A stretch of 64,000 nucleotides of DNA from an uncultured bacterium (GTDB lineage Bacteria > Cyanobacteriota > Vampirovibrionia > Gastranaerophilales > Gastranaerophilaceae): NCBI GenBank assembly GCA_946622415.1, contig CAMOPX010000006.1, positions 3,693 to 67,692 of the forward strand, given 5' to 3'. Shown in pieces: positions 2,102 through 63,483 of the stretch; within the stretch, counting starts at the first letter, position 1; each line of letters opens with the position of its first letter. The notes beneath the pieces are model-generated. The model had not been told where the DNA came from. It searched no databases and saw only the letters and a program-made list of their open reading frames with translations. Made by a program: the position numbers and the translations under genes.

Positions 2102-2102
2102 T

Positions 2103-2684: not shown

Positions 2685-2686
2685 GA

Positions 2687-5302: not shown

Positions 5303-5319
5303 ATTGAAAAGGAAATAAA

Positions 5320-13801: not shown

Positions 13802-15685
13802 ATGGCAAAAACAAAAAAGATTTCGGGCGAATTGGAATATATAATCTCACCAAAAAGTGTTAATACAGTTTTTGTTCATAAAGATAGCAATCCCGCAACA
13901 ATCAAGTTGAAGTATAATGATACAAATACAAAATACAACTATATTCCTTTTGTAACAAGAAAAGGCAATAATCTTGTTGTTAAAACATACGTTATAAAAA
14001 TGTACAGTTCAAATATGTATAAAAAAACAATCACAACAACATTTAAAGATTATTTTTCGGATGAAAATTTTAACAGCATATATAATGATAAATCGTTAGA
14101 GGAAAGATGCGCACAAAAAAATGTTACCCTAACGGAAAACAAGGAATATATTTTAGCATCAAGCGATAAAAATGCATCTCTTGTTCTATCTGAAGGCGGC
14201 AGTGATTGGATTTATGATACCAAGGGCAATGATAATTATACTCTTGAATATAACTATTATAATGAAGAAGAAAATGCGTATACAGGTACAGACGTAATCA
14301 TCGAAGCTTCAGGTAATGACATATACAATCTTAAAGATGGAAACCGTGCATACGTAGTAGATATTAAAGGTTCCGATAAATATTTCGCATCAGAAAATAA
14401 AGCTATTATCACGGTTCAGGACTGTGCTGGAAATGATAAATATAAAGCCGGCAATCAAGGGGTTTTATCTATTGATGACGGCAAGGGAAATGATAAATAT
14501 TACTTAAATAATAAATCAAGAGGTATTATCAGTGATAGTTCAGGCAAAGATTATTACGAAATAACAGATTCCTTTATATATCTTAATGATTTAAACGGCA
14601 AGGATGAATATATTATCAAAGATTGTACCGAATTAGAATATATTGATTTATTCATACAGGATTCGGGTAAATATAACGATACATATAATTTCAATAATAT
14701 AAAATACAAATCGTTTACCGAAAATGAAGAAACAGGCGAAGATTATTGTAATATTATTGATACCTCGGGCAACGATAAATTTTATTTGGCTTCAGTTGAA
14801 AATATGGTTATCGGAAATAACTACGGAGATGATAAATATACAATCAATAATTCTGAAAGCATAACAGTAAAAGATATAAAAGGAAAAGATAAATATACAA
14901 TAACAGATTCAAACAATATCTTAATAGCAGACGGCCACGGAAACGATAAGTACAAAGCATACGTAACATCATCCGAAAAGACCTCATCAGATATTGATAT
15001 TATAGATTACAAAGGAAAAGATAGTTACACTTTTTCTAATTGTACAAATATCGGCATAAAAGATTATGGCGGAAAAGAAGATAAGTATAATCTGGCTAAT
15101 TGCAGTTTTTCTATAGAAGACGGATACTACGTAAATTCTACTCATGGCATTTTCAGTCCGGATGAATACAAAAAATGCAGCAAAGATACCTATATTATAA
15201 AAAATTGTGACACATACGGTTACATTAGAGACGAAGGTGGAAATGACAAATATAAAATTGACGGAATAAATGCTGAGATACAAATTTATGACTATGGAGC
15301 AGGAAAAAAAGATACCTTAGAAATTACAGGAGTAAATAAGAATGACATTATATATATGACAAATATAGATGAAGATGGCTTTGATTGTGATTTAATTTTG
15401 TACAACAAAAGTACCGGCGGTTATATATCAATTGATCTTTTTTATGAAACAGATGAAGATGAAGAAAATATTATTGGATATTCGAAAGGAAGAATTGAGA
15501 CTATAAAAATAAATAACAAAAGTATCAAAACCGGCAAAAGCCTATATACTAATTTTAACAATATAAAAGAAGAAGTTATCACTTGGCTAAAAGATACAGT
15601 TCACGAAAGTGTAGAAGATATATTAACAAGTGACGATACCACAGCAAAAGAACAACTTATTGCATATTTTACGGGAAATAATTAG
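13802..15685 (+). CDS. Degenerate RTX-like (hemolysin-type calcium-binding) repeat protein
   Basis: 627 aa with at least 14 G-N/K/S-D-K-Y units at an ~18-20 aa period. The C-terminal module follows the pattern that trails RTX repeats. SD aaggaaggg; no signal peptide. Confidence 0.55.
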   Translation: MAKTKKISGELEYIISPKSVNTVFVHKDSNPATIKLKYNDTNTKYNYIPFVTRKGNNLVVKTYVIKMYSSNMYKKTITTTFKDYFSDENFNSIYNDKSLEERCAQKNVTLTENKEYILASSDKNASLVLSEGGSDWIYDTKGNDNYTLEYNYYNEEENAYTGTDVIIEASGNDIYNLKDGNRAYVVDIKGSDKYFASENKAIITVQDCAGNDKYKAGNQGVLSIDDGKGNDKYYLNNKSRGIISDSSGKDYYEITDSFIYLNDLNGKDEYIIKDCTELEYIDLFIQDSGKYNDTYNFNNIKYKSFTENEETGEDYCNIIDTSGNDKFYLASVENMVIGNNYGDDKYTINNSESITVKDIKGKDKYTITDSNNILIADGHGNDKYKAYVTSSEKTSSDIDIIDYKGKDSYTFSNCTNIGIKDYGGKEDKYNLANCSFSIEDGYYVNSTHGIFSPDEYKKCSKDTYIIKNCDTYGYIRDEGGNDKYKIDGINAEIQIYDYGAGKKDTLEITGVNKNDIIYMTNIDEDGFDCDLILYNKSTGGYISIDLFYETDEDEENIIGYSKGRIETIKINNKSIKTGKSLYTNFNNIKEEVITWLKDTVHESVEDILTSDDTTAKEQLIAYFTGNN

Positions 15686-34185: not shown

Positions 34186-34857
34186 ATGATGCAAGAACTC
34201 AAAATTGGTCCGAATACCGGACACATAATCAAAAGAGCTGTTAACTGTAAGACTCTCGGGACTTTAGGACGAGAAGAAGATGCAGCGCAAGTTTTGATGG
34301 AAAATCCGATAAAACCGTATGTTGATACAAGAACTTTGGGTCAAAAGTTTTTATTTTATTCAAAAGAAAATCTTGCAAGTGTTAAAAAAGCAACAGAAGG
34401 TAAAAAACCGGAAGAAATACTTGAACTTATAGGGATAAAAACATCTACGCTTCCTGACGGAAGTAAATCCATCAGTGCTTTTCATGCACCAACACAATGG
34501 TGCACTTTTAAAACTCTCGGAATAAACGAAGAACAATTACTTGCAGATGTCAAAGTTATAAAAGGCAGTTGTGATTTAACAGGCAGCTATTTAAAAAATT
34601 TATCCGGTGTTGAACGTATTGACGGAACTCTGATTATACCTATTTTTTCAAAACTTGAAGATTTGAGTTCACTGAAACAAGTAAACTTTATTTCTTGCGA
34701 CGCAGCAGATTCAAAAACCGTACAAGATACATTGTCAAAATTATCACTCAATTGTATAACTTTTGGAATAAACCGCGTTTTTAACCCTGGATTTAAAAAA
34801 TTGCCCTTTCAGGATACTCTAAAATCTTTCATGGCATCAGGTTTATATAAGTCTTAA
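34186..34857 (+). CDS. Hypothetical protein (223 aa), C-terminal half weakly leucine-rich-repeat-like
   Basis: Good SD (aaaggaaaaa). No recognised catalytic motif. The stop overlaps the radA stop through TTAA. Confidence 0.4.
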   Translation: MMQELKIGPNTGHIIKRAVNCKTLGTLGREEDAAQVLMENPIKPYVDTRTLGQKFLFYSKENLASVKKATEGKKPEEILELIGIKTSTLPDGSKSISAFHAPTQWCTFKTLGINEEQLLADVKVIKGSCDLTGSYLKNLSGVERIDGTLIIPIFSKLEDLSSLKQVNFISCDAADSKTVQDTLSKLSLNCITFGINRVFNPGFKKLPFQDTLKSFMASGLYKS

Positions 34858-36266: not shown

Positions 36267-36403
36267 CGAGTTTGCGGAAAAATTATCATTTTTCGACGTT
36301 TCCTGTATCCTTTTTTAATTTTTGTAACAATATACATTTTTTATAGTTCAAAAAAAATATTTACAATCGTTGTAATCAAAAAACCATTAAAAAAGGAAAT
36401 ATA

Positions 36404-39400
36404 ATGAGAGTAGATTCGCCATCATTCAATTTGTTGAATAATCAACAAAACGTTGCATTTTCAAAATTAAGAAAAGAAAAACCAAGAACCACAGAACAAA
36501 AACAACAAAGACCACAAAATTATAAGCCTATAGGACTGCCTTCTGTTTTTTCCATTCCTGCAGCAATTGCTTCAACTTTAGAAATAAACGGTTTTAAAAA
36601 AATATTCACACAAGAAGCGGAAACAACGTACAATAATGCGGTAAAATTGGCCCGCAGGTACAAATCACCAACAGTTGAAGCAAGACATTTGTGGCTTTCT
36701 TCTCTATTGGAAATGGAAAAATATTTAGAAGAAATTAATGACGGTACAGCAAAATTTGACGATTATACACGTCAAAAATTTACTCAAATGATTGCAACCA
36801 GTGTTGTTAACGGTCATACTTTGGATTTAAACGAAGATGAAACAAGAGAAAAACTCCAAGGAGTAGTTAAAAAACATATTGAAGTCGTGAAAAGTGATTT
36901 TGAAAAAGAAGCACTTTCAAGACCTGCTTTTTCTTCTATTCCCGTACCCTCAAAAAGTTTATTAAAACAATTAAATGAAGTATACAACTTAATGTATCAA
37001 AATTCTAACTTTGAAACATTTTATGATAGTTACTATTATCTTATGGCTGCAAACTCTCGAGATAAAAAATTAAAAGAATATTTTGAAGATTTTATGTTTG
37101 ATACCCAAAATGCAATTATGGTAGAAGATAAATCAAAAGAAAGTAAATTTCACTTGAGTTTCTTTGATGAAAAAGCCAACACCCTGTGGGAATCAGTTGA
37201 TATGGGTAATGATACAATTGTTCTTTGCGATAGCGAAAATAAATCAGCAGCAGGCTATTTAAAAAGCAGTTTTGAAAATCTTATCAAAAAACCTAATGCA
37301 AAATATAGAAGTATAAATAAAGATAATGTAGAAATTATAAACTTGAATAATTTTGCCAATCTGGATTTTCTTTCGGATCTTATGGCAGAAATAAACAAAA
37401 AGAGTAAAAAAACAGGAAAAACCACTGTTATTGTCGGCAATATTATGTCAATAATGGGAGGCAACAGTATAGGTCAGCAAGACGAAAACAGCTTTGTTGT
37501 TGATACAAAAAAGATAATGGCTCTTGCAAATAAAGACTCAAAGGGCAACAAAAATCCTAATATAAGATTTATATTCACGATGGATCCTTCTTCTTATTAT
37601 GGAAATCTGCAAGGAGGTATTCTGACGGACATAATAAAAGAATACGCTGTTCAAACCCTGCCTGCAATCACAGCCGAAGATGCAAGAAAATATTTAACGG
37701 ATGAAAAGGGCGTAAGCTACATAAAAAATGAATTAGGTAAAGATATCGACGTAAAAACAATAAAAAAGGCTATTTATCTGACAAATGACGATAAAGGAAA
37801 TTATCCCGATAAAGTATTGGATTTGTTAAAGAGAGTTTCAATGTATTTTGTTGACAGTGATTCTATTACAACAGAACAGTTGGATAAATATATCAGGCAA
37901 ATAGAAAGTCTGTCCGAAGCAAGTGATAGCGAAGAAGAAATAAATATTACATACAACACGGGAAAAACCTTAAATGATATTGTGGGTTCTCAAATGACAA
38001 AAGAAGCCGCAAAATCGGTAGTAGATGAAATTAAAAACTGTCCAAAAACAAAGGGGTATTTAATATATCAATCAAACTATACAAGTGACGGCGGCGGAAG
38101 AAGAAACACTGCAGAAGCAATAGCAGGGGAATTAAAAATTCCTATGATTACAATTGATGCTAAGGAATTTTTAATGAAGGATTTATCTGCCCTGTATCAA
38201 AATCCGAATTTTGCTGAATTAAAGATAAAAACCCTGATTACAAAAGCAAAAGCCCAAGCAAGAACTAATCAATATAAAACCGCTATGCTGTATATAGAAA
38301 ATTTTGATAATTTTGCAACCGACCCATATAAAGGCTATAGCGTAGATAGTTATGAACAAAAAGCCTTTTCGCAATTGCTTTTGGAAATGGGAAAAGCAAG
38401 AAAAGAAGATGGCGCAAATCTCGTTGTAATGGGTTCTGTTAATAACAGGGGTGTAATTGATGATAATATCAGAAAACCCGGCAAATTCATGGATGAAATC
38501 GTTGTATATCCGCCTATGGATGATAACGAGATAAAAGATATCATAAAATACTATGTTAAAAAAATGAAGCTTAATATAGAAGGTGATAAACAAAAGCAGA
38601 ATGAAATTATAGAACATACAGCAATAACAGCAGATGGCTTTAGCGTTGTTGATATTATGTATTTATTGGAAACAGCAAGAAGTGTTTCATTAGAGCGAAA
38701 CAAAAAAGCAATAGATAAAGCCGATATGACAGAGGCATATTTAAGAACTATATATGGAAGAACAAATAAATACAAAACCTCGGACCACAGCAAAAAAATA
38801 GTAACATCCCATGAAGCAGGACACGCTTTGACGCTTCAAATTATGTATAATGTTGCGGCAAAACAAAGCGATATGCCATGGAAATTACCCGATAAAGTAG
38901 ATTTTATAACATTAGACCCCAGAGGATATTATGGCGGCGCTATGTTCCACAAAGACGGCGAAAACAAAGAAAACACATTTGAAAAAATAATGGCTGATTT
39001 GGTTTGCAGCTATGGCGGCCATTCGGCAGAAAAAATACTCTACGATTATTCCGGTTCTTATGGCATAACAAGCGACATGGAAAAAGCAAGATATTTAGCA
39101 GAAGCTGCAGTTACCGATATGGGTATGGGCGCAAAAACAGGTGTTCGTCATATAAAAAGAAATTATTTTGGCGAACTTGATGTTTCCGGCAAACAGAAAG
39201 AAATAATTGAAGAAGATGAAGAAGCCATTTTATCTGCGGCAGAAAAAATTTCTAATAAAATTCTTGAAGAATACAAAGATTTTATTGAACAGTTTACACA
39301 AAAATATTGGCAAAGAGTCGGAAGCGGTGAGTGTATTATTACATCGGATGAATTTAATCAAGATTTACAAGATTGGCTCAGCAAACAAACAAGAGACAAA

Positions 39401-39484
39401 AGATACAATTTAGAAGCACTGGAAGATAAAATTGCCAAGTGTATTAATGATGTTAAACACGGCAAAGACTTCCATCTGCAATAA
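36404..39484 (+). CDS. Clp-N-like / degenerate Clp-D1 AAA+ / degenerate FtsH AAA+ / M41 zinc-protease chimera
   Basis: 1026 aa, SD aaggaaa. Colinear with ClpB D1 (aa ~268-480) and FtsH (aa ~520-1000). The Walker A/B and Arg-finger boxes are replaced, while HEAGH (38810-38824) is retained. Confidence 0.6.
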   Translation: MRVDSPSFNLLNNQQNVAFSKLRKEKPRTTEQKQQRPQNYKPIGLPSVFSIPAAIASTLEINGFKKIFTQEAETTYNNAVKLARRYKSPTVEARHLWLSSLLEMEKYLEEINDGTAKFDDYTRQKFTQMIATSVVNGHTLDLNEDETREKLQGVVKKHIEVVKSDFEKEALSRPAFSSIPVPSKSLLKQLNEVYNLMYQNSNFETFYDSYYYLMAANSRDKKLKEYFEDFMFDTQNAIMVEDKSKESKFHLSFFDEKANTLWESVDMGNDTIVLCDSENKSAAGYLKSSFENLIKKPNAKYRSINKDNVEIINLNNFANLDFLSDLMAEINKKSKKTGKTTVIVGNIMSIMGGNSIGQQDENSFVVDTKKIMALANKDSKGNKNPNIRFIFTMDPSSYYGNLQGGILTDIIKEYAVQTLPAITAEDARKYLTDEKGVSYIKNELGKDIDVKTIKKAIYLTNDDKGNYPDKVLDLLKRVSMYFVDSDSITTEQLDKYIRQIESLSEASDSEEEINITYNTGKTLNDIVGSQMTKEAAKSVVDEIKNCPKTKGYLIYQSNYTSDGGGRRNTAEAIAGELKIPMITIDAKEFLMKDLSALYQNPNFAELKIKTLITKAKAQARTNQYKTAMLYIENFDNFATDPYKGYSVDSYEQKAFSQLLLEMGKARKEDGANLVVMGSVNNRGVIDDNIRKPGKFMDEIVVYPPMDDNEIKDIIKYYVKKMKLNIEGDKQKQNEIIEHTAITADGFSVVDIMYLLETARSVSLERNKKAIDKADMTEAYLRTIYGRTNKYKTSDHSKKIVTSHEAGHALTLQIMYNVAAKQSDMPWKLPDKVDFITLDPRGYYGGAMFHKDGENKENTFEKIMADLVCSYGGHSAEKILYDYSGSYGITSDMEKARYLAEAAVTDMGMGAKTGVRHIKRNYFGELDVSGKQKEIIEEDEEAILSAAEKISNKILEEYKDFIEQFTQKYWQRVGSGECIITSDEFNQDLQDWLSKQTRDKRYNLEALEDKIAKCINDVKHGKDFHLQ

Positions 39485-39502
39485 TAAATAAAAAATATTA
39501 GC

Positions 39503-39535
39503 AAAAAAGACGGATTATAAAAATCCGTCTTTTTA
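39503..39535 (+). terminator. Rho-independent terminator
   Basis: agacggat (39508-39515) pairs with atccgtct (39523-39530), followed by a T-run. Confidence 0.75.
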
Positions 39536-39556
39536 TTATGCAAAAAATTTTGTTTT

Positions 39557-43443: not shown

Positions 43444-43477
43444 AAAAAACCGATACTTTTGAGTATCGGTTTTTTTA
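43444..43477. terminator. Bidirectional terminator between oadB and the 461-aa gene
   Basis: A-run, then ccgatact / agtatcgg (43450-43469), then a T-run. The T-run overlaps the stop codon of the minus-strand gene. Confidence 0.75.
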
Positions 43478-44860
43478 TTCTAAAGCCATTTTTTGCGCAT
43501 TTGAAACACACAAAAGCAAATCCACCATTTTATATATATCTTCCTGTTTTAAATCTTTATCGCAATCGGATTCATCTATCATTACTTTTAATTTAAGCTC
43601 TTTTTCTATCCTATCCAATGCAACGGAAGGTCTGGAGGAAGTTTCAATAATTTCGCGCATTTTATCAATATCATAGCTCAAGGGTTTATCGGGCGGAGTT
43701 TGTTTTTTTATTTCGTCAATTACCGTTAAAAATTCTTTTTGATAATCAATTTCGGCTGCCGAATCTTCATCTTCTTCGTTTTGACTATTTATTAGTCCTA
43801 TCAATTCGGATAATTTATCATCATCAAGCACCGGATAATCTTTGTCCTCCGGTTCGTAACTTTCAGCTTTCCAATTGTATATCCAGCTATCGTCGTACAA
43901 CCCTACTAATTTTATACATTCAATCAGTGCCTCACTTCTTCCCCAAGGAGAAGTGGCATGGGTTCGATTTGTATAATTATATTTTTCACAAAAATTCGCC
44001 CAAGATTTTGCAATACGTTTATTGTATTCTAAAATCCTTTGATGATTCAAAGTAGAAGAAATTTCAGCAAACTTATTAACATCTTTATCAAACAATTCGA
44101 GTTGTTTTTTTGCATCAAGCATTATATGCGCATATTGGCTATCTATTCCCATTCCCTTACTTATAATATCATCAAGATTAGAATATCCTGCTTTTCTTAT
44201 GACGGTATTAACTGTTTCATTAAGGTTGGGATTTGAACTTTCGACTAATTTAACACCTTCTGTATTTTTAAATTCAGCCGAAGTTGATAAATCGCTTACT
44301 CTTAATTTTCCTTTTTGAATATCAGGGTTATATTTCACTATATAGCTGCCTTCGGGTATTTTTATATTTCCTCTTAAATAAAAATCATCCCACTTTCCGC
44401 CCAAAATATCTTCATTTTGGACACCATCCATTGTTTTATTAAAAGGAAGAATTATTCCGTATTTCATTTGATGCCAACCTTCACCATACATATGTTCATG
44501 GACAACATGATTCAGGGCAAAGTGAACGGTTGAACGATATTTTCCCGCACCGCTTTCATCTTTTGTGGCATTTTTTGTTGAAATAATTTTACCATCTATA
44601 GGTACATAATTTGTCATATGAACAAGCGCTAAATTATCAGGATTCATATCCTTAAATTTTTTCATGGGTTTTACTTCGCACCCATCGAATAAATCATTAT
44701 TGCAATCGTAGTACTTAACATCCGGATTGGCGGAAAATGAAACCGTATCATTTTTTATATAATTATTTTTTAACGACGGATTTAAAACTCGATTATATTT
44801 AATATTTTGTATATTGTTTAATGAGGAAATTTTCATATATAAATTAAAGCAATAAGACAT
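43475..44860 (-). CDS. Hypothetical protein (orphan, 461 aa in the long ORF)
   Basis: No recognised family; acidic C-terminal half. The probable true start is the ATG at 44836 (MKISSLNN...), see the promoter feature. Confidence 0.45.
   Translation of the reverse strand: MSYCFNLYMKISSLNNIQNIKYNRVLNPSLKNNYIKNDTVSFSANPDVKYYDCNNDLFDGCEVKPMKKFKDMNPDNLALVHMTNYVPIDGKIISTKNATKDESGAGKYRSTVHFALNHVVHEHMYGEGWHQMKYGIILPFNKTMDGVQNEDILGGKWDDFYLRGNIKIPEGSYIVKYNPDIQKGKLRVSDLSTSAEFKNTEGVKLVESSNPNLNETVNTVIRKAGYSNLDDIISKGMGIDSQYAHIMLDAKKQLELFDKDVNKFAEISSTLNHQRILEYNKRIAKSWANFCEKYNYTNRTHATSPWGRSEALIECIKLVGLYDDSWIYNWKAESYEPEDKDYPVLDDDKLSELIGLINSQNEEDEDSAAEIDYQKEFLTVIDEIKKQTPPDKPLSYDIDKMREIIETSSRPSVALDRIEKELKLKVMIDESDCDKDLKQEDIYKMVDLLLCVSNAQKMALE
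44837..44851 (-). promoter_or_regulatory. Extended -10 element placed for a leaderless transcript of the 461-aa gene
   Basis: The minus strand reads TGcTTTAAT + ttatat (6 nt) + ATG (44836). Confidence 0.45.
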
Positions 44861-44898: not shown

Positions 44899-46647
44899 TT
44901 ACAATTCTTCTTTTAAAAGATATTCAGCGAGTTTTTGTTCGGTTGTTCCGTTTAATCTTTTTGAAATTTTCTTTAGTTTTTGACTAATAAGCTCCATTTC
45001 ATCAGTCCAAACAAAGTAATCATTAACGTATTTTTCACCTGCTGAAAAATCCTTACTCAGTTGAACCTTGATAATTTCCGAGAGCATTTTTTGCGCCGTC
45101 GGCACCATTTTTTCTATATCTATTGATAAAAAACCATCCGATGAAATTGAAATAGCTTTATTTAAAATAAAATAGTAATTTTGCATAACCGAGCGAACTC
45201 TGTGTGCTTGCGATAATTCCGGTTTTGATTTTAACATATTATCTGCCGCGTATGTTACTATTATTTTATTTCTTTCTTCTTTTGTGTATAATCCGGCATC
45301 AGTCAAAACATCAAGCATAGAAAGAGAAACCATATCAGCTTTATTTTCTTCAATAATTGATTTATATTTACCGAGTGCTTCCGTTCCTTCTTTTGGTCCT
45401 AAAGAATGCCCGTTTTCATGACCAATCGTAAACGGGTGATCCATTTTATCGTCATAAAATTTGTGAAAATTTTTATCTAAAATATTATCGAGTCTTTCTT
45501 GCAGTTTTTGTTTTGCATCTTCTGACGTTATAAATCTTATTTGTCTGTGGTAAACGTTTCTTCTTCCGCCACCTATGGTTAAAGACAATTTGTCATTGTT
45601 GGGTAAATTTTCAGCCAAAGTTATCCCTGCTCTAAATGCACCCACATCACCCGCAACATCAACCAAATCCACATCCACCATGGTTTGTGATATTTCATTC
45701 TTATCGGAAATTACTTGTTGATATTCGTCATTATAGGGCATATTTTTTGCCATTAGAGGCAAGTATTCTTTAACTTTTAAAATATAATCAGTACCTTCTT
45801 TATTGACTATACCTACTCTTGCACCCAGATAATCTTTTGAAATTACTTCTATATTGTTTTTATCGAGTAGATTTTTTAATTCTTCATTTTCAAGAACCGT
45901 TTCCGTCATTGTATCAGAGTAATTTTCTCTGGTTATTGTAAATTCAAGAGGAGTATCCTGCATTTTTGCCCATTTTCTATCCGCATAAGCATCCAGCATA
46001 GGATCCGCAACCAAAAATGCCTGTGCTTGAAGTCTTAAATATTCGTTAAAATCTATATTTGTCGAAAGACAGCTCGCTCTCAACAATAATTCCGCAGCAT
46101 TTTTAAAATCCTCTGAGAATTTATCCACATAATCAATTGCGACAAGTTCTTCTTTGCTTTCTTTATCCCATTCAATAACACTTCTTTGGTTTAATATTTT
46201 CCTTACGAGTTCAATCTTTCCATCTTTTATATATTTTATTAAAATATTATGAAATTTTTCTACGGTTAAATCCTCCGGATAGAAACCTCTGCCGCCCTTA
46301 AATTCCAATTCTTTTGCAAGGATTACCATATTAGATTCACAATCAAGAGAAAAAATTCCTTTTTGCGCATCAAACAATATTTTTGTTAATTTTGCCCTTT
46401 CATCGCCTTTTTTAATTTCATCTTCCAAGTATTTTTTAAAAGGTAAATTGTGACAAGAATCAAGCTCCATATTTATTTTTTCTATAATTCTTGCTGCTTT
46501 AACAAGATAAGAAAGAGCGTTTTTATCTCCGTCTGCAAGGTTATTAAATTCAGGCGAATCAACATCAAGCATTTTTTTGGTGACCAAACAGTCTTTTGAA
46601 GTTCTTTTCTTTAATTCATCTAAATCGAGATTGCATTCGTATTTCAT
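44899..46647 (-). CDS. Zinc metallopeptidase, dipeptidyl-peptidase III (M49)-like with pentapeptide HEXXH
   Basis: 582 aa. Has FTIGHENGHSLGP followed ~25 aa later by IIEENKADMV (compare the M49 motifs HEXXGH / EECRAE). SD aagaggaaa / taggat upstream. Confidence 0.5.
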   Translation of the reverse strand: MKYECNLDLDELKKRTSKDCLVTKKMLDVDSPEFNNLADGDKNALSYLVKAARIIEKINMELDSCHNLPFKKYLEDEIKKGDERAKLTKILFDAQKGIFSLDCESNMVILAKELEFKGGRGFYPEDLTVEKFHNILIKYIKDGKIELVRKILNQRSVIEWDKESKEELVAIDYVDKFSEDFKNAAELLLRASCLSTNIDFNEYLRLQAQAFLVADPMLDAYADRKWAKMQDTPLEFTITRENYSDTMTETVLENEELKNLLDKNNIEVISKDYLGARVGIVNKEGTDYILKVKEYLPLMAKNMPYNDEYQQVISDKNEISQTMVDVDLVDVAGDVGAFRAGITLAENLPNNDKLSLTIGGGRRNVYHRQIRFITSEDAKQKLQERLDNILDKNFHKFYDDKMDHPFTIGHENGHSLGPKEGTEALGKYKSIIEENKADMVSLSMLDVLTDAGLYTKEERNKIIVTYAADNMLKSKPELSQAHRVRSVMQNYYFILNKAISISSDGFLSIDIEKMVPTAQKMLSEIIKVQLSKDFSAGEKYVNDYFVWTDEMELISQKLKKISKRLNGTTEQKLAEYLLKEEL

Positions 46648-46722: not shown

Positions 46723-47565
46723 TTAATTATAGTTAAAAACAAATGTTCTCTTGCATTTAAAACCGTCAGGATAAGAATTTTGGGTTGAATATGAAACCAT
46801 ATTGTCTTTTTTATTCATATCTATCGATATTCCCTGCTTTCCTTCCATATCACCGTCGTGAATTTCTTCAGGCGACATAAATAAAATTTGCATTTTTCCT
46901 TTGCCGTCTTTTTCTTTGGACATAATTAAAATGCCATCATCAGAAACAGTGGTCTTGTTTTGGAGTTTTGAATCTTTGTTATTCTTATAAAATTCTTCCA
47001 TTAATTCGGCACAAGTATCATTTTCTCCATCGAAAAACTCCCTCTTTACAGCCTTTATTAAATCGTATGCTAAAAAGTTTTTTTCTTTATAGGTTTTTTC
47101 CGAATCATTTGATAAATTAATTTCAACTACGTTATCGCCTTTTCTGTACGCAAGAAAGTATTTGCTTATTAATAAATCGGAATCTTCTCCCGTAGGATAT
47201 TTGTATAAGTACCTTTTCCCACCGGAATATATTGCGGTAGTTTGCATATTTTCTTCTATATTATCAAAAAATCTTCCTTTGCCTTGATTTTGTTGATAAA
47301 GACTTCTCAAGATTTTTATCGCTTTTTTATGGTCGTTACTGTCAATTGCTTTATTAATACCCAAGCTTGCTCTTGATATATTTTTTCCGTAATTTTGTTC
47401 AAAATTTATCTTGTTATATGAGCCTGAAAGTTCCAATGCAGAATAATCAAAACCTCTTTCTGTATTTGTTTTTAAGGATTGCAAACTGTTTTTATTCTGA
47501 TTTGTTCTTAAAACCAAACTGTGTGACGTTATTCCGTTTATTTTCATATACAGATTGTAACACAT
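46723..47565 (-). CDS. Hypothetical protein (orphan, 280 aa in the long ORF)
   Basis: No recognised family. The probable true start is the ATG at 47547 (MKINGITS...). Confidence 0.45.
   Translation of the reverse strand: MCYNLYMKINGITSHSLVLRTNQNKNSLQSLKTNTERGFDYSALELSGSYNKINFEQNYGKNISRASLGINKAIDSNDHKKAIKILRSLYQQNQGKGRFFDNIEENMQTTAIYSGGKRYLYKYPTGEDSDLLISKYFLAYRKGDNVVEINLSNDSEKTYKEKNFLAYDLIKAVKREFFDGENDTCAELMEEFYKNNKDSKLQNKTTVSDDGILIMSKEKDGKGKMQILFMSPEEIHDGDMEGKQGISIDMNKKDNMVSYSTQNSYPDGFKCKRTFVFNYN
47548..47562 (-). promoter_or_regulatory. Extended -10 element placed for a leaderless transcript of the 280-aa gene
   Basis: The minus strand reads TGtTACAAT + ctgtat (6 nt) + ATG (47547). Confidence 0.45.
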
Positions 47566-52005: not shown

Positions 52006-52672
52006 ATGTTCCGGCTTCTCTATCACTGACAACTTGTCCGTGGTTAAGTGTAACTACTCTTTTTCTGAAGTAATTAACCATATTTTGGTCATGTGTTGAA
52101 ACAAGTATGGTAATTCCTCTTTGGTTAACCTGTTCGAGTATCTGCATAACTTCAAGCGAATTTTTCGGATCGAGATTACCTGTAGGTTCATCCGCTATCA
52201 ATAACGGAGGCCCGTTCACAATTGCACGTGCGATGGAAACTCTTTGTTGTTCACCGCCTGATAATTCACTGGGTTTTGATTTGTATTTATCCTCTAAACC
52301 GACAACCTTCAAGGCGCCCATTACTCTTGTTTCAATTTCTTTTGATGAAATACCCATTGTTCTTATTACATATGCGATATTATCATATACTGTATGGTTT
52401 TGAAGCAATTTATAATCCTGAAAAACAATTCCCATACATCTTCTTAAACTCGGAATTTTGCTCGGTGGGAGATTTCCTATGTCTATACCTGCAACATACA
52501 CGCTGCCCCTTGTCGGTCGCTCTTCCAGGTATAGCATTTTCATCAATGTAGATTTTCCCGCACCTGATGACCCTACAAGAAACACAAATTCACCGGGTCG
52601 AATATCCAAATCAATTCCCCTGAGCGCGTATTTATTTTTATATTGTTTAACTAAATCTCTTATTACAATCAT
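51998..52672 (-). CDS. ftsE: Cell division ATP-binding protein FtsE
   Basis: 224 aa. Has Walker A GSSGAGKST, the signature LSGGEQQR and Walker B LLIADEPTGNLD. Confidence 0.93.
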   Translation of the reverse strand: MIVIRDLVKQYKNKYALRGIDLDIRPGEFVFLVGSSGAGKSTLMKMLYLEERPTRGSVYVAGIDIGNLPPSKIPSLRRCMGIVFQDYKLLQNHTVYDNIAYVIRTMGISSKEIETRVMGALKVVGLEDKYKSKPSELSGGEQQRVSIARAIVNGPPLLIADEPTGNLDPKNSLEVMQILEQVNQRGITILVSTHDQNMVNYFRKRVVTLNHGQVVSDREAGTYD

Positions 52673-53631
52673 CTTACATCCATAAATTTAATTATTTTTT
52701 CATATATTTTCTTGTCGGTTAAACCGTAAAATTCCATTAGTTGTCTTTGTTCACCGGATTGACCGAAGGTATCTTTTGTGCCGATTCTGTACACTTTAGA
52801 AGGTGCATAATGACACAACGATTCACAAACCGCACTGCCTAATCCGCCTATCACACTGTGATTTTCAACAACAACAACTTTTTTGGTTTTTTGCGCACTT
52901 GCTTTAAGTGCTAAGTGGTGGAACGGTTTAACAACCGGATAATGCAATACATCGGCTTCAATTCCAACTTCATGGAGCTTTTGTGCAGTTGATAACACTT
53001 CGTACAATGTTTCACCGTTTGTAACAATAGTCAAATCCTTTCCGTCACGGAGTTTTATTCCCGCATTCGGATTAAATTTGTAATCTTTATCAAAAATGTT
53101 TTTGAGATTTGTTCTCGGTATTCTGATATACATCGGAAGCGGTGTTCTTGCAGCATATTCTATAACCTGACGTACTTCATTACAATCCGCAGGAACAATA
53201 ACACGCATATCAGGAATTGAACGCATATACGAAACATCCTCTAATGCCTGATGAGAAGCACCATCTTCACCCACCGTAATTCCCCCGTGGGTAGCAACAA
53301 TTTTAACGTCCAATTTTGAATAACAAACCGTATTCCTTATTTGGTCAAGACATCTCGTTGTTGCAAACATTGCAAACGTACTTGCAAAAACAGTTTTTCC
53401 GCCATAAGCAAGACCTGCAGCCGTTGTAATCATATCTTGTTCTGCTATACCGCAATTAAAAAATCTTTCGGGATATGCTTTTTTAAACATGGCAGTTTGG
53501 GTAGAACATGACAAATCTGCGTCTAATACAACAATATTGAGATTTTTTCCGCCTAATTCAACAAGCGTTTCACCGTATGTTTTTCTCGGGGATTTTGTTT
53601 CAGGCTTTTCTAAGAGATTTTTTACTAGCAT
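52669..53631 (-). CDS. Transketolase, C-terminal (pyrimidine-binding) subunit
   Basis: 320 aa. Has GIAEQDMITTAAGLA and HGGITVGEDGASHQ. Overlaps the N-terminal subunit gene. Confidence 0.88.
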   Translation of the reverse strand: MLVKNLLEKPETKSPRKTYGETLVELGGKNLNIVVLDADLSCSTQTAMFKKAYPERFFNCGIAEQDMITTAAGLAYGGKTVFASTFAMFATTRCLDQIRNTVCYSKLDVKIVATHGGITVGEDGASHQALEDVSYMRSIPDMRVIVPADCNEVRQVIEYAARTPLPMYIRIPRTNLKNIFDKDYKFNPNAGIKLRDGKDLTIVTNGETLYEVLSTAQKLHEVGIEADVLHYPVVKPFHHLALKASAQKTKKVVVVENHSVIGGLGSAVCESLCHYAPSKVYRIGTKDTFGQSGEQRQLMEFYGLTDKKIYEKIIKFMDVR

Positions 53632-54428
53632 AATTCCTCCAGCGCTTTTTTAAGTTCTTCATCGTTCGGTGCTTTTCCATGCCATGAAACATTGTTTTCC
53701 ATAAATGAAACACCCTTGCCTTTTATAGTATTCGCAATTATTGCAGTAAGTTCGTTTGATTTTTTCGCATCAAGCAAAACTTTTTCCAATTCTTCAAAAT
53801 TATGTCCGTCAACTGTTTTTACATTAAATCCGAAAGCTTCTAATTTTTTATCAAGAGGCTCTAACGTTTTAACATCATTTGTCGAACCGTCGATTTGCAG
53901 GTTGTTTTTGTCTATTATTACAACAAGATTTTTAAGCTTTTGATTATTTGCATTCATTAATGCTTCCCAAACGCTTCCTTCCTGCATTTCACCATCGCCC
54001 ATTAAAACAAAAACTTTTGATTTAATGTTATCTAATCTCATTGCAAGAGCCATACCGACACCGATAGAAAGTCCTTGTCCTAAAGAACCTGTTGAAACCT
54101 CAATTCCCGGTAGTCCTACTCTTGATGAAGGGTGTCCTTGAAGTTTTGAACCCAGTATTCTAAAACCCATTAACAAGTCTTTTGAAAAATAACCGCAATG
54201 CGCAAGAACAGCATACAGAGCGGGGCTTGCATGTCCTTTTGAAAGAATAAATCTGTCCCTGTTTTTAAAATCTACGGCATTTGCCCATTCAACAGGTACA
54301 TTTAAAACTTTCTTATATAATACCGATAAAATATCAACGCATGAACACGCACCACCGGGGTGACCTGATTTTGCGTTGTGAATCATTTTTAGTATGTCTT
54401 TTCTAACCGCATTCGTAAACGTTTTCAA
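53625..54428 (-). CDS. Transketolase, N-terminal (TPP-binding) subunit
   Basis: 267 aa. Has SGHPGG, SKGHASPALYA and the TPP motif GDGEMQEGSVWEA...NL. Confidence 0.9.
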   Translation of the reverse strand: MKTFTNAVRKDILKMIHNAKSGHPGGACSCVDILSVLYKKVLNVPVEWANAVDFKNRDRFILSKGHASPALYAVLAHCGYFSKDLLMGFRILGSKLQGHPSSRVGLPGIEVSTGSLGQGLSIGVGMALAMRLDNIKSKVFVLMGDGEMQEGSVWEALMNANNQKLKNLVVIIDKNNLQIDGSTNDVKTLEPLDKKLEAFGFNVKTVDGHNFEELEKVLLDAKKSNELTAIIANTIKGKGVSFMENNVSWHGKAPNDEELKKALEELC

Positions 54429-55199: not shown

Positions 55200-56735
55200 C
55201 TATTGTTCGTCTTCTTCTGTGTCATTGTAATTATAAAAATACTGACATCCGTTCCATATACATATTTCTACCTGAGAAACATTACATTTTCCGACAACAC
55301 AATCAAGAGTACCGTCGGGACTTATTGAAAAATGTTCACAATTTTGACAAACTTTTAAAGTTAAGTCTTTTGATTTTAATTTGTATGTCATATCAGCCAT
55401 GGCATCATACATTCTTAAACATAAATCAGTTGAAATAAAACGATTTCCTTCTCTGAATACGACTTTTTTCATGCCGTCTTCCGATACTAAATCCAATTTA
55501 CAATTTATATCTTTTTTTCCATGTCTTACAACAGCACTTACGGTAGCAGAATTAATGTTTTCTTCTTCATATTTACTGTTTTTAATTGACCTCATGGTCA
55601 AATTGTTAATATAGAGTTTTGTTTTTTGCCAAGTAAGACAAAAAGGATAAAATATCAAAAAGAACACTTCAGATGCAGTCATTTTTGAAATAAATATTGA
55701 AAATAAAAAGTTAGCAAACAAAAAAGCACCCAATACAATAACAAAATTAGAAGCAACATGCTGCGGAAAAGATACCGACAACGATAAAAGTCCTATGTAT
55801 GCTGCAATAACCAAGATTGAATTAGGTTTTAAGCAAAAGAGTATAAACTCTTTGAAAGTTAAATCCTTGAAAAACAAAAATTTAAAATAGTATGAAAAAA
55901 GATGTATCTTATTTTTCAACGAGGGTGAAGCAAAATTATAATTTTTAATATCAACACCCGTGATAATGTATGGAGAATAAATTGATTTTATACCGTTAGA
56001 AGCCAAATCCAGAGTATATTCAAGCTCTATATCTTTATCTTCTACGCTTATGTATCCTATTTGGTTTAAAACATCAGAAGTTATAACAAAATTTTCTCCG
56101 TCAATCAAGAAAGGTAAATTAAACATAGAACGAACAAGGTTGTAGGTTCTGTTTGAATATTTTAAATATGATGAAATAACAGCCTGCTTTAATCTTTTTG
56201 CAAACTGTTTGTTTTTATTCATCGTAATTTTTGTACCTACATAAACCCCGGGTTCTGTAATTGTTTTATTGATATTATAAAGATATTTTTCGCCTATTAT
56301 TCTCTTTGCACCTAAAAATATAAATGCATCAAAGTTTTTTTCGGGAAGTAATTTTTGAATTAATAAATTAAGCGCTTTATCTTTTGAAAAGAAATCCGGA
56401 TTTTGAATATTATGAATTCTTGCGCCCAGCGCAAAATCTCTTTCCGCGTTTGTATCGTTCATATCTTTCTGAAATGCGACATGGACTTCGTAATTATCTT
56501 TTGAATAATCCTGATTATTCAAAGAAGCAAGAAGTTTATCAAGATTTTTATCTCTGCTTGTAGCGTATATTAAAACACAGAGTCTTTTATTTTCCGTAAC
56601 TTTACTTCTGTTAATTTCCTGTTCGTATGCAAAGTTGTCTAAATTTCTGGCTTTTATATAAAAGAAAAGTTGGTATATGCAATAAATAAACAGATAAATT
56701 ATTATTATAGCGAATAATACATCAAATAATATCAT
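55200..56735 (-). CDS. Membrane-anchored GT2-like protein with C-terminal Cys-rich (zinc-ribbon-like) tail
   Basis: 511 aa. Has an N-terminal TM segment and a GT-A start (LCVLIYATSRDKNLDKLLASLNNQDY), but the expected DxD position reads FLGAK. Mid-protein TM segments are present. The tail is CQNCEH...C..GKC......C..NGC. Confidence 0.5.
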   Translation of the reverse strand: MILFDVLFAIIIIYLFIYCIYQLFFYIKARNLDNFAYEQEINRSKVTENKRLCVLIYATSRDKNLDKLLASLNNQDYSKDNYEVHVAFQKDMNDTNAERDFALGARIHNIQNPDFFSKDKALNLLIQKLLPEKNFDAFIFLGAKRIIGEKYLYNINKTITEPGVYVGTKITMNKNKQFAKRLKQAVISSYLKYSNRTYNLVRSMFNLPFLIDGENFVITSDVLNQIGYISVEDKDIELEYTLDLASNGIKSIYSPYIITGVDIKNYNFASPSLKNKIHLFSYYFKFLFFKDLTFKEFILFCLKPNSILVIAAYIGLLSLSVSFPQHVASNFVIVLGAFLFANFLFSIFISKMTASEVFFLIFYPFCLTWQKTKLYINNLTMRSIKNSKYEEENINSATVSAVVRHGKKDINCKLDLVSEDGMKKVVFREGNRFISTDLCLRMYDAMADMTYKLKSKDLTLKVCQNCEHFSISPDGTLDCVVGKCNVSQVEICIWNGCQYFYNYNDTEEDEQ

Positions 56736-61014: not shown

Positions 61015-61417
61015 AAGTTAAATCAACTATTCTGAACCCCAAAGCCGATAGCAGCTTCAGGGAATCATAGTTTGATTTATAAATATAATTGAACATAGAT
61101 GAGCATTTTTCTTTGTATTTATCAACTTTTGCTTTTATGTATTTATAAAGCTCATATTTATTGTTTTTCACTTCATTTGTGCAAAGAAGCCACACTAAAA
61201 AAATATTGTTATCGTTATATTTATGAAAACCACCCAATGCTAAGGGTTTGCCGCTATCGCTTCCGATAAAATATGTGTTTTTAGTGTTTTTAACAGTTTG
61301 AATAAATTTTTTTCTCAATTTTTTTCCAAAATGATAAAAAAGTTCGTCTCTATCGGATTTTCTGATGTCGTTTAAAAATTTATTCAAATTTTTCCTGTTT
61401 ATTAATAATTCAATCAT
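60944..61417 (-). CDS. Phage protein, GNAT-fold-like; occupies the T7 gp13 position after tail tubular B
   Basis: 157 aa. The C-terminal pattern N.....S..LL..LGF resembles small acetyltransferase-fold phage proteins. The assignment is by weak pattern match and synteny only. Confidence 0.3.
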   Translation of the reverse strand: MIELLINRKNLNKFLNDIRKSDRDELFYHFGKKLRKKFIQTVKNTKNTYFIGSDSGKPLALGGFHKYNDNNIFLVWLLCTNEVKNNKYELYKYIKAKVDKYKEKCSSMFNYIYKSNYDSLKLLSALGFRIVDLTCEDFKLFYYTKGNSFDTRYITRK

Positions 61418-63483
61418 GTATTCTCCGCCTCTTCTAAAGATACGGTTGATGTGATTGCGCTGACGGTTAAAGGCAGAGGGAATTTTTGAAATATGGTAAT
61501 ATTTTTTTCTGTTTTAGGTGTATTTAAAAGCGTAAATTCAACGCTTTTTGAAAAAAGTTTCGATGGAATATTAATGCTTTCATGGCTTCTTGCATTTTGA
61601 CAAACTGTTCCGTCATCATTTTTTATGAAAAAGTCCTCTCTTGAATTAATAATCTTGACATCTACTTTATTTACAATTTTTTTGATTCCGAGCGTTGAAA
61701 TATTTTCTATATTTAAGGTTTGCAATTCAAAAGTATAAGGGAGTCCGATTACAATATTTTGCGCAGGATAGGGAAAATTTATCGTGCCATCGTTGTTAAC
61801 TTCCATACCCTCAACAACCCCAAAATCCAAAAGACCGCAAACCGTTTCTCCTGCTAAATGTTCAAAACCGCTCACGTTTGAAACCTTATCCTCAAACACT
61901 CTTGATAGTGCAGAATCCAAGAAAAACGCGTTTTCAAGAGTTTTTATCGTTCTTGATTTCAATCTCTCTATATATCGAACTGTTTGGTTATTTATTTTTC
62001 TTTTAACCGTAAAATAGACAACATCTTCATTACCTTCTCTTATAGTCGCAACACTTTCAAATTCACCTTTTGTTATATGTGTATGCCATGCTGAAATTTT
62101 TTGACTCGGATTATAAGTAAGAGCGTTTACGGAACCGTCCGACATAACACACCATATAATCCTATTGGGTTCTTTTGAATATGCCATATCAACAATCTGC
62201 TTACCTTCAAATAAATGATTTGCAAGGATAGTTAATTCCTGCCCGTCATAAGAATCGGATAAGTAATTGTACCCCAAGTCCCTAACAATACTTCCGCCTA
62301 ATTGCACAAATACTACCATAGAACCGGAAACCACAGGTTTAATTTTAGAAGAACCGTAATAGGATTGAAGACTTGCTTTTGGTGCAGGATTTGCGCTGAA
62401 TACTTCATCTTTACCGTTTACCGCCCATTCCGCATTCGTCGACATAACAATCAAATCATCAAGAGGTAATAAGTGTTGAATTGAATTTGCAACATTATCA
62501 TATAATGACATACTTATTGAATCCGTTGCATTTAACGGCCTTGAAACGTTAAAATTATTATTCGTACCTGTTTGGCTCGCCCAAAGAGTCTGCGGATAGT
62601 TTTGTGATGAAGCATAAACTTTTCTTTGTTGATAATAACAAACACAAGAGGGATATTCGTTGTTCGTAAACGGATTAGAATAAACAGGTGCGCAAGAAGT
62701 TAAATCGGGTTCTATATTGTTATCAACAAAACTCGTGTTGCTTGTTGTCCCGACGTAACCATATATGCCATTTACCGCCCTATATACATTATATTCCTGT
62801 GCATTTTGAACGGCACCCCATCTTACTGTTATATATTCAGACGTTGTCCAATAGGCCTCTAAATGCCCCTTTACTTTTGCCTTTTCACTTCTTGTACTTT
62901 CTTCGTTTGTTGCAGTATCTACCGCCGTTACAACGTAATAGTAGTAAGTAGTATTTGAAGAAGTTGAGCCTGTATAAGAAGCTGTGACGTTGAGAGGCGC
63001 TGTTATTGCCGATCTAAAATCAATTGCGCTCAATTGCCATTGATTATGCTGTATTCTTGAAAGTTCATAAGGAGTATAGTTTTTATGCACAAGCGTGATT
63101 GTGTCTGCCTGTTGAACGTAATCAATTTCAAATAAATCAGCTTCTTGGTAAGGGGTTGTGATTTCATAAATTGTATTGTTGTTATTTAACACATATCCAC
63201 CATCTTTAATCACTCTTATATAATTTTCGCCGAATTCTAAAATATAATTTTGTTCCAAATTAAAAATAAAAGGTATAAGACGACATTTTTTGTTGTTAAA
63301 TTTAGTGTTTACCAAAAATTCAAGACCTGAACGATTTTGTACACATCCTTCCTGTAAAACCATTCCGTTTGTCAGATTTTTAACACCTAAAGAATACTGC
63401 TCCAAATCAACTCTGCCATCTAAAGACGGCGATAATATACCTTTTGAAAATGAATTTTGACACACTCTTACGCTCATCAGCAC
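61414..63483 (-). CDS. Podovirus tail tubular protein B-like structural protein
   Basis: 689 aa. The N-terminus QNSFSKGILSPSLDGRVDLEQY..G...L.N......G....R.G..F parallels T7 gp12 (QSIKNLKGGISQQPD...). Follows a gp11-like gene. Confidence 0.45.
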   Translation of the reverse strand: MLMSVRVCQNSFSKGILSPSLDGRVDLEQYSLGVKNLTNGMVLQEGCVQNRSGLEFLVNTKFNNKKCRLIPFIFNLEQNYILEFGENYIRVIKDGGYVLNNNNTIYEITTPYQEADLFEIDYVQQADTITLVHKNYTPYELSRIQHNQWQLSAIDFRSAITAPLNVTASYTGSTSSNTTYYYYVVTAVDTATNEESTRSEKAKVKGHLEAYWTTSEYITVRWGAVQNAQEYNVYRAVNGIYGYVGTTSNTSFVDNNIEPDLTSCAPVYSNPFTNNEYPSCVCYYQQRKVYASSQNYPQTLWASQTGTNNNFNVSRPLNATDSISMSLYDNVANSIQHLLPLDDLIVMSTNAEWAVNGKDEVFSANPAPKASLQSYYGSSKIKPVVSGSMVVFVQLGGSIVRDLGYNYLSDSYDGQELTILANHLFEGKQIVDMAYSKEPNRIIWCVMSDGSVNALTYNPSQKISAWHTHITKGEFESVATIREGNEDVVYFTVKRKINNQTVRYIERLKSRTIKTLENAFFLDSALSRVFEDKVSNVSGFEHLAGETVCGLLDFGVVEGMEVNNDGTINFPYPAQNIVIGLPYTFELQTLNIENISTLGIKKIVNKVDVKIINSREDFFIKNDDGTVCQNARSHESINIPSKLFSKSVEFTLLNTPKTEKNITIFQKFPLPLTVSAITSTVSLEEAENT

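Follow-up and report, generated by a model that had tools for sequence, protein, structure and literature searches.

Can a protease of the AAA+ type work when both of its motor modules have lost the residues used for ATP hydrolysis? AAA+ proteases are defined by an ATP-driven unfoldase coupled to a sequestered protease, and the question is raised by one gene in a stretch of 64,000 nucleotides from an uncultured bacterium of the Gastranaerophilaceae (contig CAMOPX010000006.1, positions 3,693 to 67,692; the whole stretch is referred to as the window). The gene encodes a protein of 1026 residues in which a disordered tail is followed by a Clp-N-like double repeat, a D1-type AAA+ module, an FtsH-type AAA+ module (AAA2) and a Peptidase M41 domain. 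The original prediction, read from the translation, described a Clp-N-like domain and two AAA+ modules with ablated ATPase motifs, fused to an intact FtsH-type protease. The open reading frame (ORF) and all the peptide and nucleotide coordinates quoted in it were exact (Table 1).

Architecture of the protein

The C-terminal half was recognized in searches with the single sequence. Pfam AAA matched residues 562-699 (E 1.7e-8) and Pfam Peptidase_M41 (PF01434) scored 63.7 bits over residues 792-967 (E 2.6e-17), above its cut-off of 29.9; by this profile match the protein belongs to Pfam M41. The NCBIfam model FtsH_fam (TIGR01241) aligned with residues 520-967 at 120.7 bits, under its equivalog cut-off of 600. 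A phmmer search of the PDB aligned residues 522-970 end to end with the FtsH proteins of Aquifex, Thermus and Thermotoga (6gcn, E 1.6e-20). A full-length structure model of moderate confidence, compared by Foldseek, superposed on apo-FtsH, including the M41 domain (3kds; E 2.7e-18, TM score 0.68), and AFG3L2, YME1 and FtsHi were also matched.

In the PDB alignment H803, E804, H807 and D891 fall on the zinc ligands and catalytic glutamate of FtsH, Glu876 is present too, and a strand motif, FITLDPRG, is the counterpart of xIIPRG in FtsH. H803, E804, H807, E876 and D891 were invariant in all 33 representatives of the protein family, which share at most 50% identity. As judged from these aligned residues, the zinc site of the protease is intact and invariant in the family, in agreement with the reading of the HEAGH motif and its downstream box in the original prediction.

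The FtsH-type AAA+ module carries changes at the positions used for ATP hydrolysis: the Walker A threonine is replaced by arginine or lysine, the Walker B aspartate by glutamate and the Walker B glutamate by asparagine. Among the representatives the P-loop showed G in 32, any residue at the next position, G in 33, R in 28 (K in 4) and then R or K in 28; Walker B showed E in 25 of 33 followed by N in 29, the arginine fingers in the SRH (second region of homology) were mostly lysine, and the sensor-1 asparagine was retained in 11. The aromatic-Gly motif of the pore-1 loop (LFG) was kept in one large subclade. The ablation of motifs claimed earlier for this module thus stands as regards the non-canonical Walker A and B motifs and the missing arginine fingers, but not as regards the P-loop, which is not simply ablated. 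The alignment indicates that the loop has not decayed and that a conserved G-x-G-R-[R/K] has replaced it.

No transmembrane segment was found in the protein. The highest 19-residue Kyte-Doolittle window scored 1.46 (residues 43-61) and was unconserved in orthologues, and Pfam gave no match to FtsH_ext in the 1026 residues. The FtsH-type N-terminal transmembrane pair is missing, as first read, and the protein has no membrane anchor and is predicted to be soluble.

The N-terminal half was not matched when the single sequence was compared with Pfam, NCBIfam and the PDB (phmmer), nor when a profile of five sequences covering residues 1-515 was used. A profile made from the 33-member family alignment of residues 60-520 (A3) matched ClpC in the PDB (3pxg, E 8e-7; 6em9, E 1e-5). 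Positions 8-44 of this profile aligned to ClpC 5-41 and also to ClpC 79-115, which are the two Clp-N repeats, and positions 308-432 aligned to ClpC 303-428 of 6em9, where LPDKAIDLIDE corresponds to yPeKAlkLmk. Alignment by hhalign with Bacillus subtilis ClpC, whose sequence as used here is identical to that of PDB 3j3s, agreed over the region from strand 4 to the lid of D1 (probability 57%, E 1e-4).

An AlphaFold model on A3 had a mean predicted local distance difference test score (pLDDT) of 88.8 and a predicted TM score (pTM) of 0.84. It folds as a helical double repeat followed by a beta-alpha-beta core with five strands and a helical lid, and its helices span residues 70-239 at pLDDT > 87. 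The first 48 of the 50 PDB neighbours listed by Foldseek for this model were ClpC, ClpA, Hsp104 and ClpB (E 1.8e-10 to 1e-5, probability 1.00), with 450-500 aligned columns over the N domain and D1. The Clp relationship was visible solely with the 33-member profile and the structure model, the single-sequence searches being blank. The Clp-N repeat proposed from the letters was recovered by the family profile in both repeats, and the proposed colinearity with a D1 module of ablated motifs was borne out by some 480-500 Foldseek columns to the Clp N domain plus D1 and by the alignment with ClpC.

When ClpC was added to the family alignment, D1 of the window protein was found to be without Walker A, the Walker B glutamate, the arginine finger and the pore loop. 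The KYRG pore loop is deleted, in a segment about 10 residues shorter than that of ClpC, and neither the glycine-rich loop nor the Walker B glutamate of D1 was present in any of the 33 representatives. There is no M-domain and no Clp D2; the D1 lid continues directly into FDTGKxLxDIxG, the start of the FtsH-type module. In the polypeptide, the N domain and D1 of a Clp/Hsp100 protein are joined straight to the cytosolic part of FtsH. According to the aligned motifs, neither of its AAA+ modules holds the residues needed for ATP hydrolysis, power strokes or the coupling of subunits to one another.

A role of the Clp-N-like domain as a receptor for phospho-arginine was also considered. The glutamate of the ClpC GTEH motif, the phospho-arginine-binding residue, is not conserved in the alignment, so that such recognition is unlikely, although the argument is weak.

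Distribution and conservation of the family

When one genome was scanned for each GTDB species, 194 relatives were confirmed by tblastn, and the best 80 of them came from 80 different assemblies; orthologues are present in at least 80 Gastranaerophilales genomes at species level. Nearly all of the 80 were labelled Gastranaerophilales, Melainabacteria or Cyanobacteria, and they included the complete genome CP017245.1 (MEL.A1). One member of the NCBI cluster has no annotation beyond 'hypothetical protein [Candidatus Gastranaerophilales bacterium]'. When 1.84 billion representative proteins were searched by HMMER with the N-terminal profile, there were 70 matches, all belonging to the family and about 35 of them full length (about 1000 residues); neither intermediates with intact motifs nor relatives outside the family were found in that search, and a word-indexed search with the 33-sequence alignment gained no further relatives.

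At 83 genomic loci the protein had a median length of 1015 residues. HExxH was present in 83/83, canonical Walker A (GxxGxGK[ST]) in 0/83 and the E-N pair of Walker B in 69/83. No intact P-loop was found anywhere among 121 family proteins, in which the looser pattern [AG]xxxxGK[ST] gave seven sporadic matches at non-homologous positions. The comparison with orthologues that the original prediction had proposed as a check therefore showed substitutions conserved family-wide and no orthologue with intact motifs. None of the outcomes that it had named as refuting was observed.

Mean pairwise identity was 0.20 in the tail, 0.20 in Clp-N, 0.27 in D1, 0.46 in the AAA2 large subdomain, 0.36 in the AAA2 lid, 0.42 in M41 and 0.40 in the C-terminal helices. 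The ratio of non-synonymous to synonymous substitution rates (dN/dS) against a 94%-identical orthologue was 0.17 overall (D1 0.20, AAA2 0.14, M41 0.16) and lay between 0.14 and 0.31 in all domains, and invariant residues were distributed across all of them; every domain is under purifying selection. By these values the strongest constraint in the protein falls on AAA2, even though this module has lost its canonical residues for ATP hydrolysis. The gene is a genuine, conserved, single-copy gene of housekeeping type in the Gastranaerophilales (non-photosynthetic Cyanobacteria, alias Melainabacteria).

Six of the gene-bearing loci, although the gene is otherwise restricted to the Gastranaerophilales, come from metagenome-assembled genomes labelled Gammaproteobacteria (L007, L010, L023), Clostridium (L051, L063) or Muribaculaceae (L068). 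Their contigs have 30-38% GC, and the labels are probably those of mislabelled bins.

In the 94%-identical orthologue, P0002 (L084, 193-3269), the gene call of 922 residues is artefactual, as the frame shifts in a run of A after about codon 66. The N-terminal tail is encoded in an upstream ORF of 79 residues and continues in another frame; the frameshift is either an assembly error or a lesion specific to the strain.

Proposed mode of action

On balance we lean towards the view that the protein is a hexameric, ring-forming zinc metalloprotease that does not hydrolyze ATP, in other words the FtsH counterpart of LonC. The M41 and AAA tiers would assemble it into a ring, probably an FtsH-like hexamer; soluble FtsH domains alone form hexamers (PMC9020784). 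Unfolded or loosely structured polypeptides would diffuse to the chamber and be degraded without ATP hydrolysis, as in LonC, whose AAA motifs are degenerate and which shows no ATPase activity; six ATPγS bind to each LonC hexamer, and only unfolded substrates are degraded, without ATP (PMC3391209). Closure of the LonC ring is ligand-dependent (PMC13069640). In the window protein the two pseudo-ATPase tiers may form a static scaffold or gate, in which AAA2 would serve assembly or allostery and D1 would be a spacer or gate. The Clp-N-like domain may act as a receptor or docking platform for substrates or for an adaptor.

No module is better conserved than the FtsH-type one, which therefore probably still has a ligand of some kind. 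The exchange of the Mg-coordinating threonine for arginine or lysine, together with that of the Walker B aspartate for glutamate, suggests a pocket that is metal-free for phosphate or one that is occupied by the protein's own side chains. The G-x-G-R-[R/K] loop and the Walker B E-N pair probably bind a nucleotide or another phosphate ligand with no metal ion and no turnover, and the ligand could serve assembly or allosteric control. The changes of Walker A K to R and Walker B E to N or Q are the classic ones by which binding is kept and hydrolysis abolished.

Several points weigh against this proposal. The full-length model is weak (pLDDT 66, pTM 0.41), so that the way in which the tiers are arranged, like the oligomeric state, is conjectural. 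We infer the loss of ATPase activity from the motifs alone, and an altered P-loop so strongly conserved could instead point to unconventional catalysis. Substrates of canonical FtsH come to its proteolytic sites by way of the ATPase pore; here they would have to pass two static rings. The LFG motif of the pore-1 loop in one large subclade hints at a remaining contact with substrate. Finally, an N-terminal leader shared with other proteins suggests a step of localisation or export for which the proposal does not account.

Alternative explanations

The protein could instead be a partner-dependent protease or a regulatory subunit, either in mixed rings with canonical FtsH or ClpC or fed by a separate unfoldase, to which it would supply just the protease chamber and the Clp-N receptor. 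FtsH-family proteins are often hetero-hexameric and the pseudo-members FtsHi act in mixed complexes (PMC8197885, PMC9020784), and the retained D1 fold with its YPDKA lid motif could keep Clp-type ring contacts. However, the anchor is missing and the extra tier of N domain and D1 lies on the face that canonical FtsH turns to the membrane, which would make mixed FtsH rings sterically awkward, and the replacement of Clp D2 by a module of a different AAA clade would make mixed Clp rings unlikely. Clustering of all flanking ORFs at the 83 loci placed the most frequent neighbour in 11/83, indicating that no dedicated partner is encoded beside the protease gene and ruling out a conserved operon partner. 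We regard dependence on a partner as unlikely.

A second alternative concerns the N-terminal tail. The 50-70 residues that precede Clp-N are disordered in the model, yet a pattern recurs across the family tails: M-[K/I]-I-x-x-I, a stretch rich in N, K and S, often NP[I/L], and then [Y/F]-[Y/V]-[V/I]-[S/T]-F-[G/K/T]. The subclade of the window has a short form, MRVDSPSFNLLNNQQNVAFSK. In the lineage-specific leader that unrelated proteins share with the family, M-[K/I]-I-x-x-I and a stretch rich in N and K are followed by [V/I]-S-F-[G/T]. A hidden Markov model (HMM) built from the family tails alone was used to scan 435 ORFs of the fetched loci, and its matches of at least 7 bits fell in 13 N-terminal and 2 internal windows, with none in reversed windows. 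At N-termini a regular expression for the leader matched 14 of 1039 Met positions; at internal Met positions the figure was 2 of 2950 (Fisher p = 4e-7). The carriers include an adenylate kinase with a 57-residue extension (in three species), ankyrin-repeat, ART-like, kinase-like and DHH-like proteins, a Ski2/DEAD-type helicase with intact motifs and, in the window, the ORFs at 43475-44860 (-) and 46723-47565 (-), neither of which has a family match. The leader was seen at loci L006, L008, L009, L011, L012, L023, L030, L035, L040, L049, L064 and L081. Its starts (MKINxI, MIINKI, MRIN) resemble flagellin N-termini. As gut Melainabacteria are flagellated diderms (PMC3787301), it is conceivable that the leader is an export or injection signal.

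On this basis the protease might be relocated, with the leader as an export, injection or sorting signal and ATP-driven unfolding dispensable at the destination, be it the periplasm, the outside of the cell or the inside of another cell, where it would act together with other leader-bearing proteins. The occurrence of the same leader at the extreme N-termini of unrelated ORFs and the effector-like nature of part of its cargo (ankyrin repeats, ART-like, kinase-like and extended adenylate kinase proteins) favour relocation. The window protein has, however, no classical signal peptide and no transmembrane segment, its own subclade has a short and divergent leader, and MEL.A1, reported without a complete flagellum, has a gene with a leader-like tail (L082). 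The cargo also includes kinases and the helicase with intact GTGKT/DEAH, so that the destination is not obviously free of ATP; an extracellular, ATP-free location as the cause of the dead ATPases is weakened by the same proteins. Relocation of this kind seems to us improbable. We hold equally doubtful the combined proposal that the protease is one of a leader-sharing set of Gastranaerophilales proteins sent to a common destination, where it would form a gated, energy-free chamber with the G-x-G-R-[R/K]/E-N site as a metal-free sensor of nucleotide or phosphate. That destination might be a flagellar-type or other export or injection pathway, or a subcellular structure.

It is less probable still that the FtsH-type module is an active ATPase of unconventional chemistry, in which Arg566 would stand for the lysine of Walker A, the role of Mg2+ would fall to a basic residue and Glu632 would be the catalytic base, so that the ring would still translocate substrates. 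Conservation is highest in the large subdomain of AAA2, where the P-loop glycines (32/33 and 33/33) and an acidic Walker B residue are kept, and one subclade has the LFG motif resembling a pore loop. On the other hand, the Walker A threonine, the Walker B glutamate (Asn in 29/33), both SRH arginines and the DGF of the inter-subunit signalling (ISS) motif, GKA in the window protein, were lost together, the sensor-1 asparagine is found in only 11/33, and changes of the K-to-R and E-to-Q type are the classic ones competent for binding and dead for hydrolysis. The loss of five independent motif classes at once makes this explanation very unlikely.

That the gene is a decaying pseudogene or an assembly chimera of clp and ftsH genes, as the frameshift in the close relative P0002 might hint, is refuted by full-length orthologues in 80 assemblies including a complete genome, by the constancy of the motifs, by dN/dS and invariant residues in every domain, and by the presence of the identical protein (P0001) on independent contigs in NCBI, ENA and Logan.

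The gene and its surroundings

Table 1. Positions in the window of the protease gene, its domains and the motifs discussed (FtsH motifs from the PDB alignment; D1 motifs from the family alignment with ClpC added)
Feature	Nucleotides	Strand	Residues	Remarks
Shine-Dalgarno-like AAGGAA	36393..36398	+		5 nt upstream of ATG, read from sequence
Whole gene	36404..39484	+		1026 codons plus stop, ATG start, uninterrupted frame
N-terminal tail, disordered	36404..36598	+	1-65	pLDDT 21-36; short leader motif MRVDSPSFNLLNNQQNVAFSK
Clp-N-like double-repeat helical domain	36599..37138	+	66-245	insertion separates the repeats
Clp-N repeat AVKLARRYKSPTVEARHLWLSSLLE		+	79-103	exact in translation
Clp/Hsp100 D1-type AAA+ module	37145..37933	+	248-510	alpha/beta large subdomain and helical lid
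ClpC VIGRxxE				FYDxKA in window protein
ClpC Walker A GEPGVGKT	37226-37249	+	275-282	CDSENKSA in window protein
ClpC Walker B FIDE	37424-37441 (TVIVGN)	+	341-348 (TVIVGNIM)	IVG-N in window protein
ClpC ATT				TMD in window protein
D1 landmark IRFIFTMDPSSY		+	387-398	exact in translation
ClpC ERRF				IKEY in window protein
D1 landmark YPDKVLDLLKRVS		+	467-479	exact in translation
ClpC LPDKAIDL	37802-37825	+		YPDKVLDL in window protein; D1 hallmark
FtsH-type (classical clade) AAA+ module with lid	37961..38773	+	520-790	motifs conserved, non-canonical
Start of FtsH-type module, TLNDIVG...		+	522-545	exact in translation
P-loop region SNYTSDGGGRRNT	38072-38110	+	557-569	exact in translation
FtsH P-loop GEPGVGKT	38090-38104 (GGGRR)	+	563-567 (GGGRR)	TSDGGGRR in window protein
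FtsH Walker B IDEID	38294-38308	+	631-635	IENFD in window protein
ISS motif EMDGF	38384-38398	+		EMGKA in window protein (DGF to GKA)
SRH arginine box RPGRFD	38474-38494	+	691-697	KPGKFMD in window protein
Peptidase M41 domain	38774..39313	+	791-970	zinc site intact
Zinc motif HEAGH	38810-38824	+	803-807	unchanged
Downstream box GITSDMEKAR		+	887-896	exact in translation
Third zinc ligand, GAENDL	39074-39076 (Asp891)	+	891 (Asp)	GITSDM in window protein
C-terminal helical extension	39314..39481	+	971-1026	contains family-specific VG[ST]GECII
Intrinsic terminator hairpin, then T-run	39501..39541	+		RNA folding

The window has about 33% GC and is ordinary low-GC chromosome. A promoter-like TTTATA-16-TACAAT lies at 36340-36367, although such sites are no commoner here than in shuffled sequence. 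The terminator hairpin has a folding energy of -17.6 kcal/mol (z = -7.2), and none of 200 shuffled sequences was equally stable. The protease gene looks monocistronic and stand-alone. In the C-terminal extension, VG[ST]GECII (residues 975-979, window 39326-39340) has a nearly invariant Cys977 and no counterpart in the aligned FtsH structures.

The window contains, in order, a pyrimidine biosynthesis operon (442-9664), gyrB, an efflux set (TolC/MarR/HlyD/MFS), recG, radA and the protease gene, followed by birA, oadGAB, ftsEX and a split transketolase. The recG and radA genes are divergent from the protease gene, and the order recG-radA-gene-birA-oadGAB is confined to close relatives (3-4 of the 83 loci). 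Rfam gave no match in the window, and an anti-phage defence system was rejected as there was no PADLOC match.

Other ORFs of the window were also inspected. The one at 44899-46647 (-), of 582 residues, sits between the two leader-bearing ORFs; it had no Pfam or NCBIfam match but is a peptidase like dipeptidyl peptidase III (M49), with PDB matches to 6eom (E 3.6e-17) and 5zum (E 1.9e-12) and the motifs HENGH and EENKAD. Four ORFs, at 13802-15685 (+), 55200-56735 (-), 61414-63483 (-) and 34186-34857 (+) with 627, 511, 689 and 223 residues, respectively, had no Pfam match at E < 1e-5 and no NCBIfam match save a non-significant one of the 511-residue ORF to EpsU (E 0.0072; 15.4 bits, cut-off 700). 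Situated between recG and radA, the 223-residue ORF has no counterpart at the orthologous locus L001. The transketolase (52669-54428, -) is split into an N-terminal ORF that binds thiamine diphosphate and a C-terminal Pyr/C ORF, and ftsE and ftsX are directly downstream of it on the same strand.

Significance

Two inert AAA+ tiers, one of Clp and one of FtsH origin, placed on a live M41 chamber amount to a natural experiment on what non-hydrolysing rings can do; the roles open to them are those of scaffold, gate, ligand sensor and receptor. The G-x-G-R-[R/K] and E-N site is a natural counterpart of the laboratory mutations that keep binding and abolish hydrolysis, and it lends itself well to structural study. 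As a clean marker the gene also identifies the Gastranaerophilales, which are common in human and animal gut flora and little studied, and the shared leader may indicate an undescribed protein-sorting system in these bacteria.

Comparison with known systems

Over its last 500 residues the protein is colinear with the entire cytosolic part of FtsH, comprising the AAA large subdomain, the lid and M41 with HExxH and Asp. Unlike FtsH, the window protein has no transmembrane helices and no periplasmic domain, GxxGxGKT has become GxGR[R/K], DE has become EN, RPGRFD has become KPxKF and the DGF of the ISS motif is gone, and a Clp-type N-terminal half of 520 residues is added. On three counts the protein falls outside the FtsH equivalog: it has no membrane anchor, its ATPase motifs are not canonical and its score lies below the cut-off.

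With ClpC, ClpA, ClpB and Hsp104 it shares a two-repeat helical N domain followed by a D1 with a lid motif of the PDKAIDL type. It differs from the Class I Clp/Hsp100 proteins in that the catalytic and pore-loop motifs of D1 are gone, in that M-domain, D2 and ClpP-docking loop are missing, and in that it is fused to its protease, whereas Clp docks onto ClpP. Its second AAA+ module is of the FtsH-type classical clade and not a Clp D2 (HCLR clade, with a ClpB_D2-small lid). The lack of D2 and of active motifs places it outside the Clp/Hsp100 proteins.

In the literature we found no description of a fusion of Clp_N with Peptidase_M41 or of an ATPase-dead FtsH, and the combination of Clp N-D1 with FtsH AAA-M41 and lost motors is apparently undescribed; the original prediction had likewise recognized no described family.

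As with FtsHi and Ycf2 of chloroplasts, an FtsH-family protein has here abandoned one of its two activities. FtsHi has lost HExxH and kept the ATPase, and is still essential (PMC8197885). The window family is the opposite: across the 33 representatives and 83 loci HExxH is kept and the ATPase motifs are lost, so that the inversion proposed at the outset holds. Unlike the window protein, FtsHi is membrane-bound and works in hetero-hexamers.

LonC of Meiothermus and Thermus, in which an intact protease domain is joined to a degenerate AAA-like module, is the system that the window protein is most like in its presumed function. The two differ in that LonC is a Ser-Lys protease of family S16 with one tier and no Clp-N, whereas the window protein has a zinc M41 domain, two pseudo-AAA tiers and Clp-N and gave no Lon_C match; their homology is limited to the AAA+ fold. 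The architecture described here has an origin independent of LonC and is the mirror image of FtsHi, and this parallel case suggests that AAA+ proteases have evolved repeatedly toward energy-free working.

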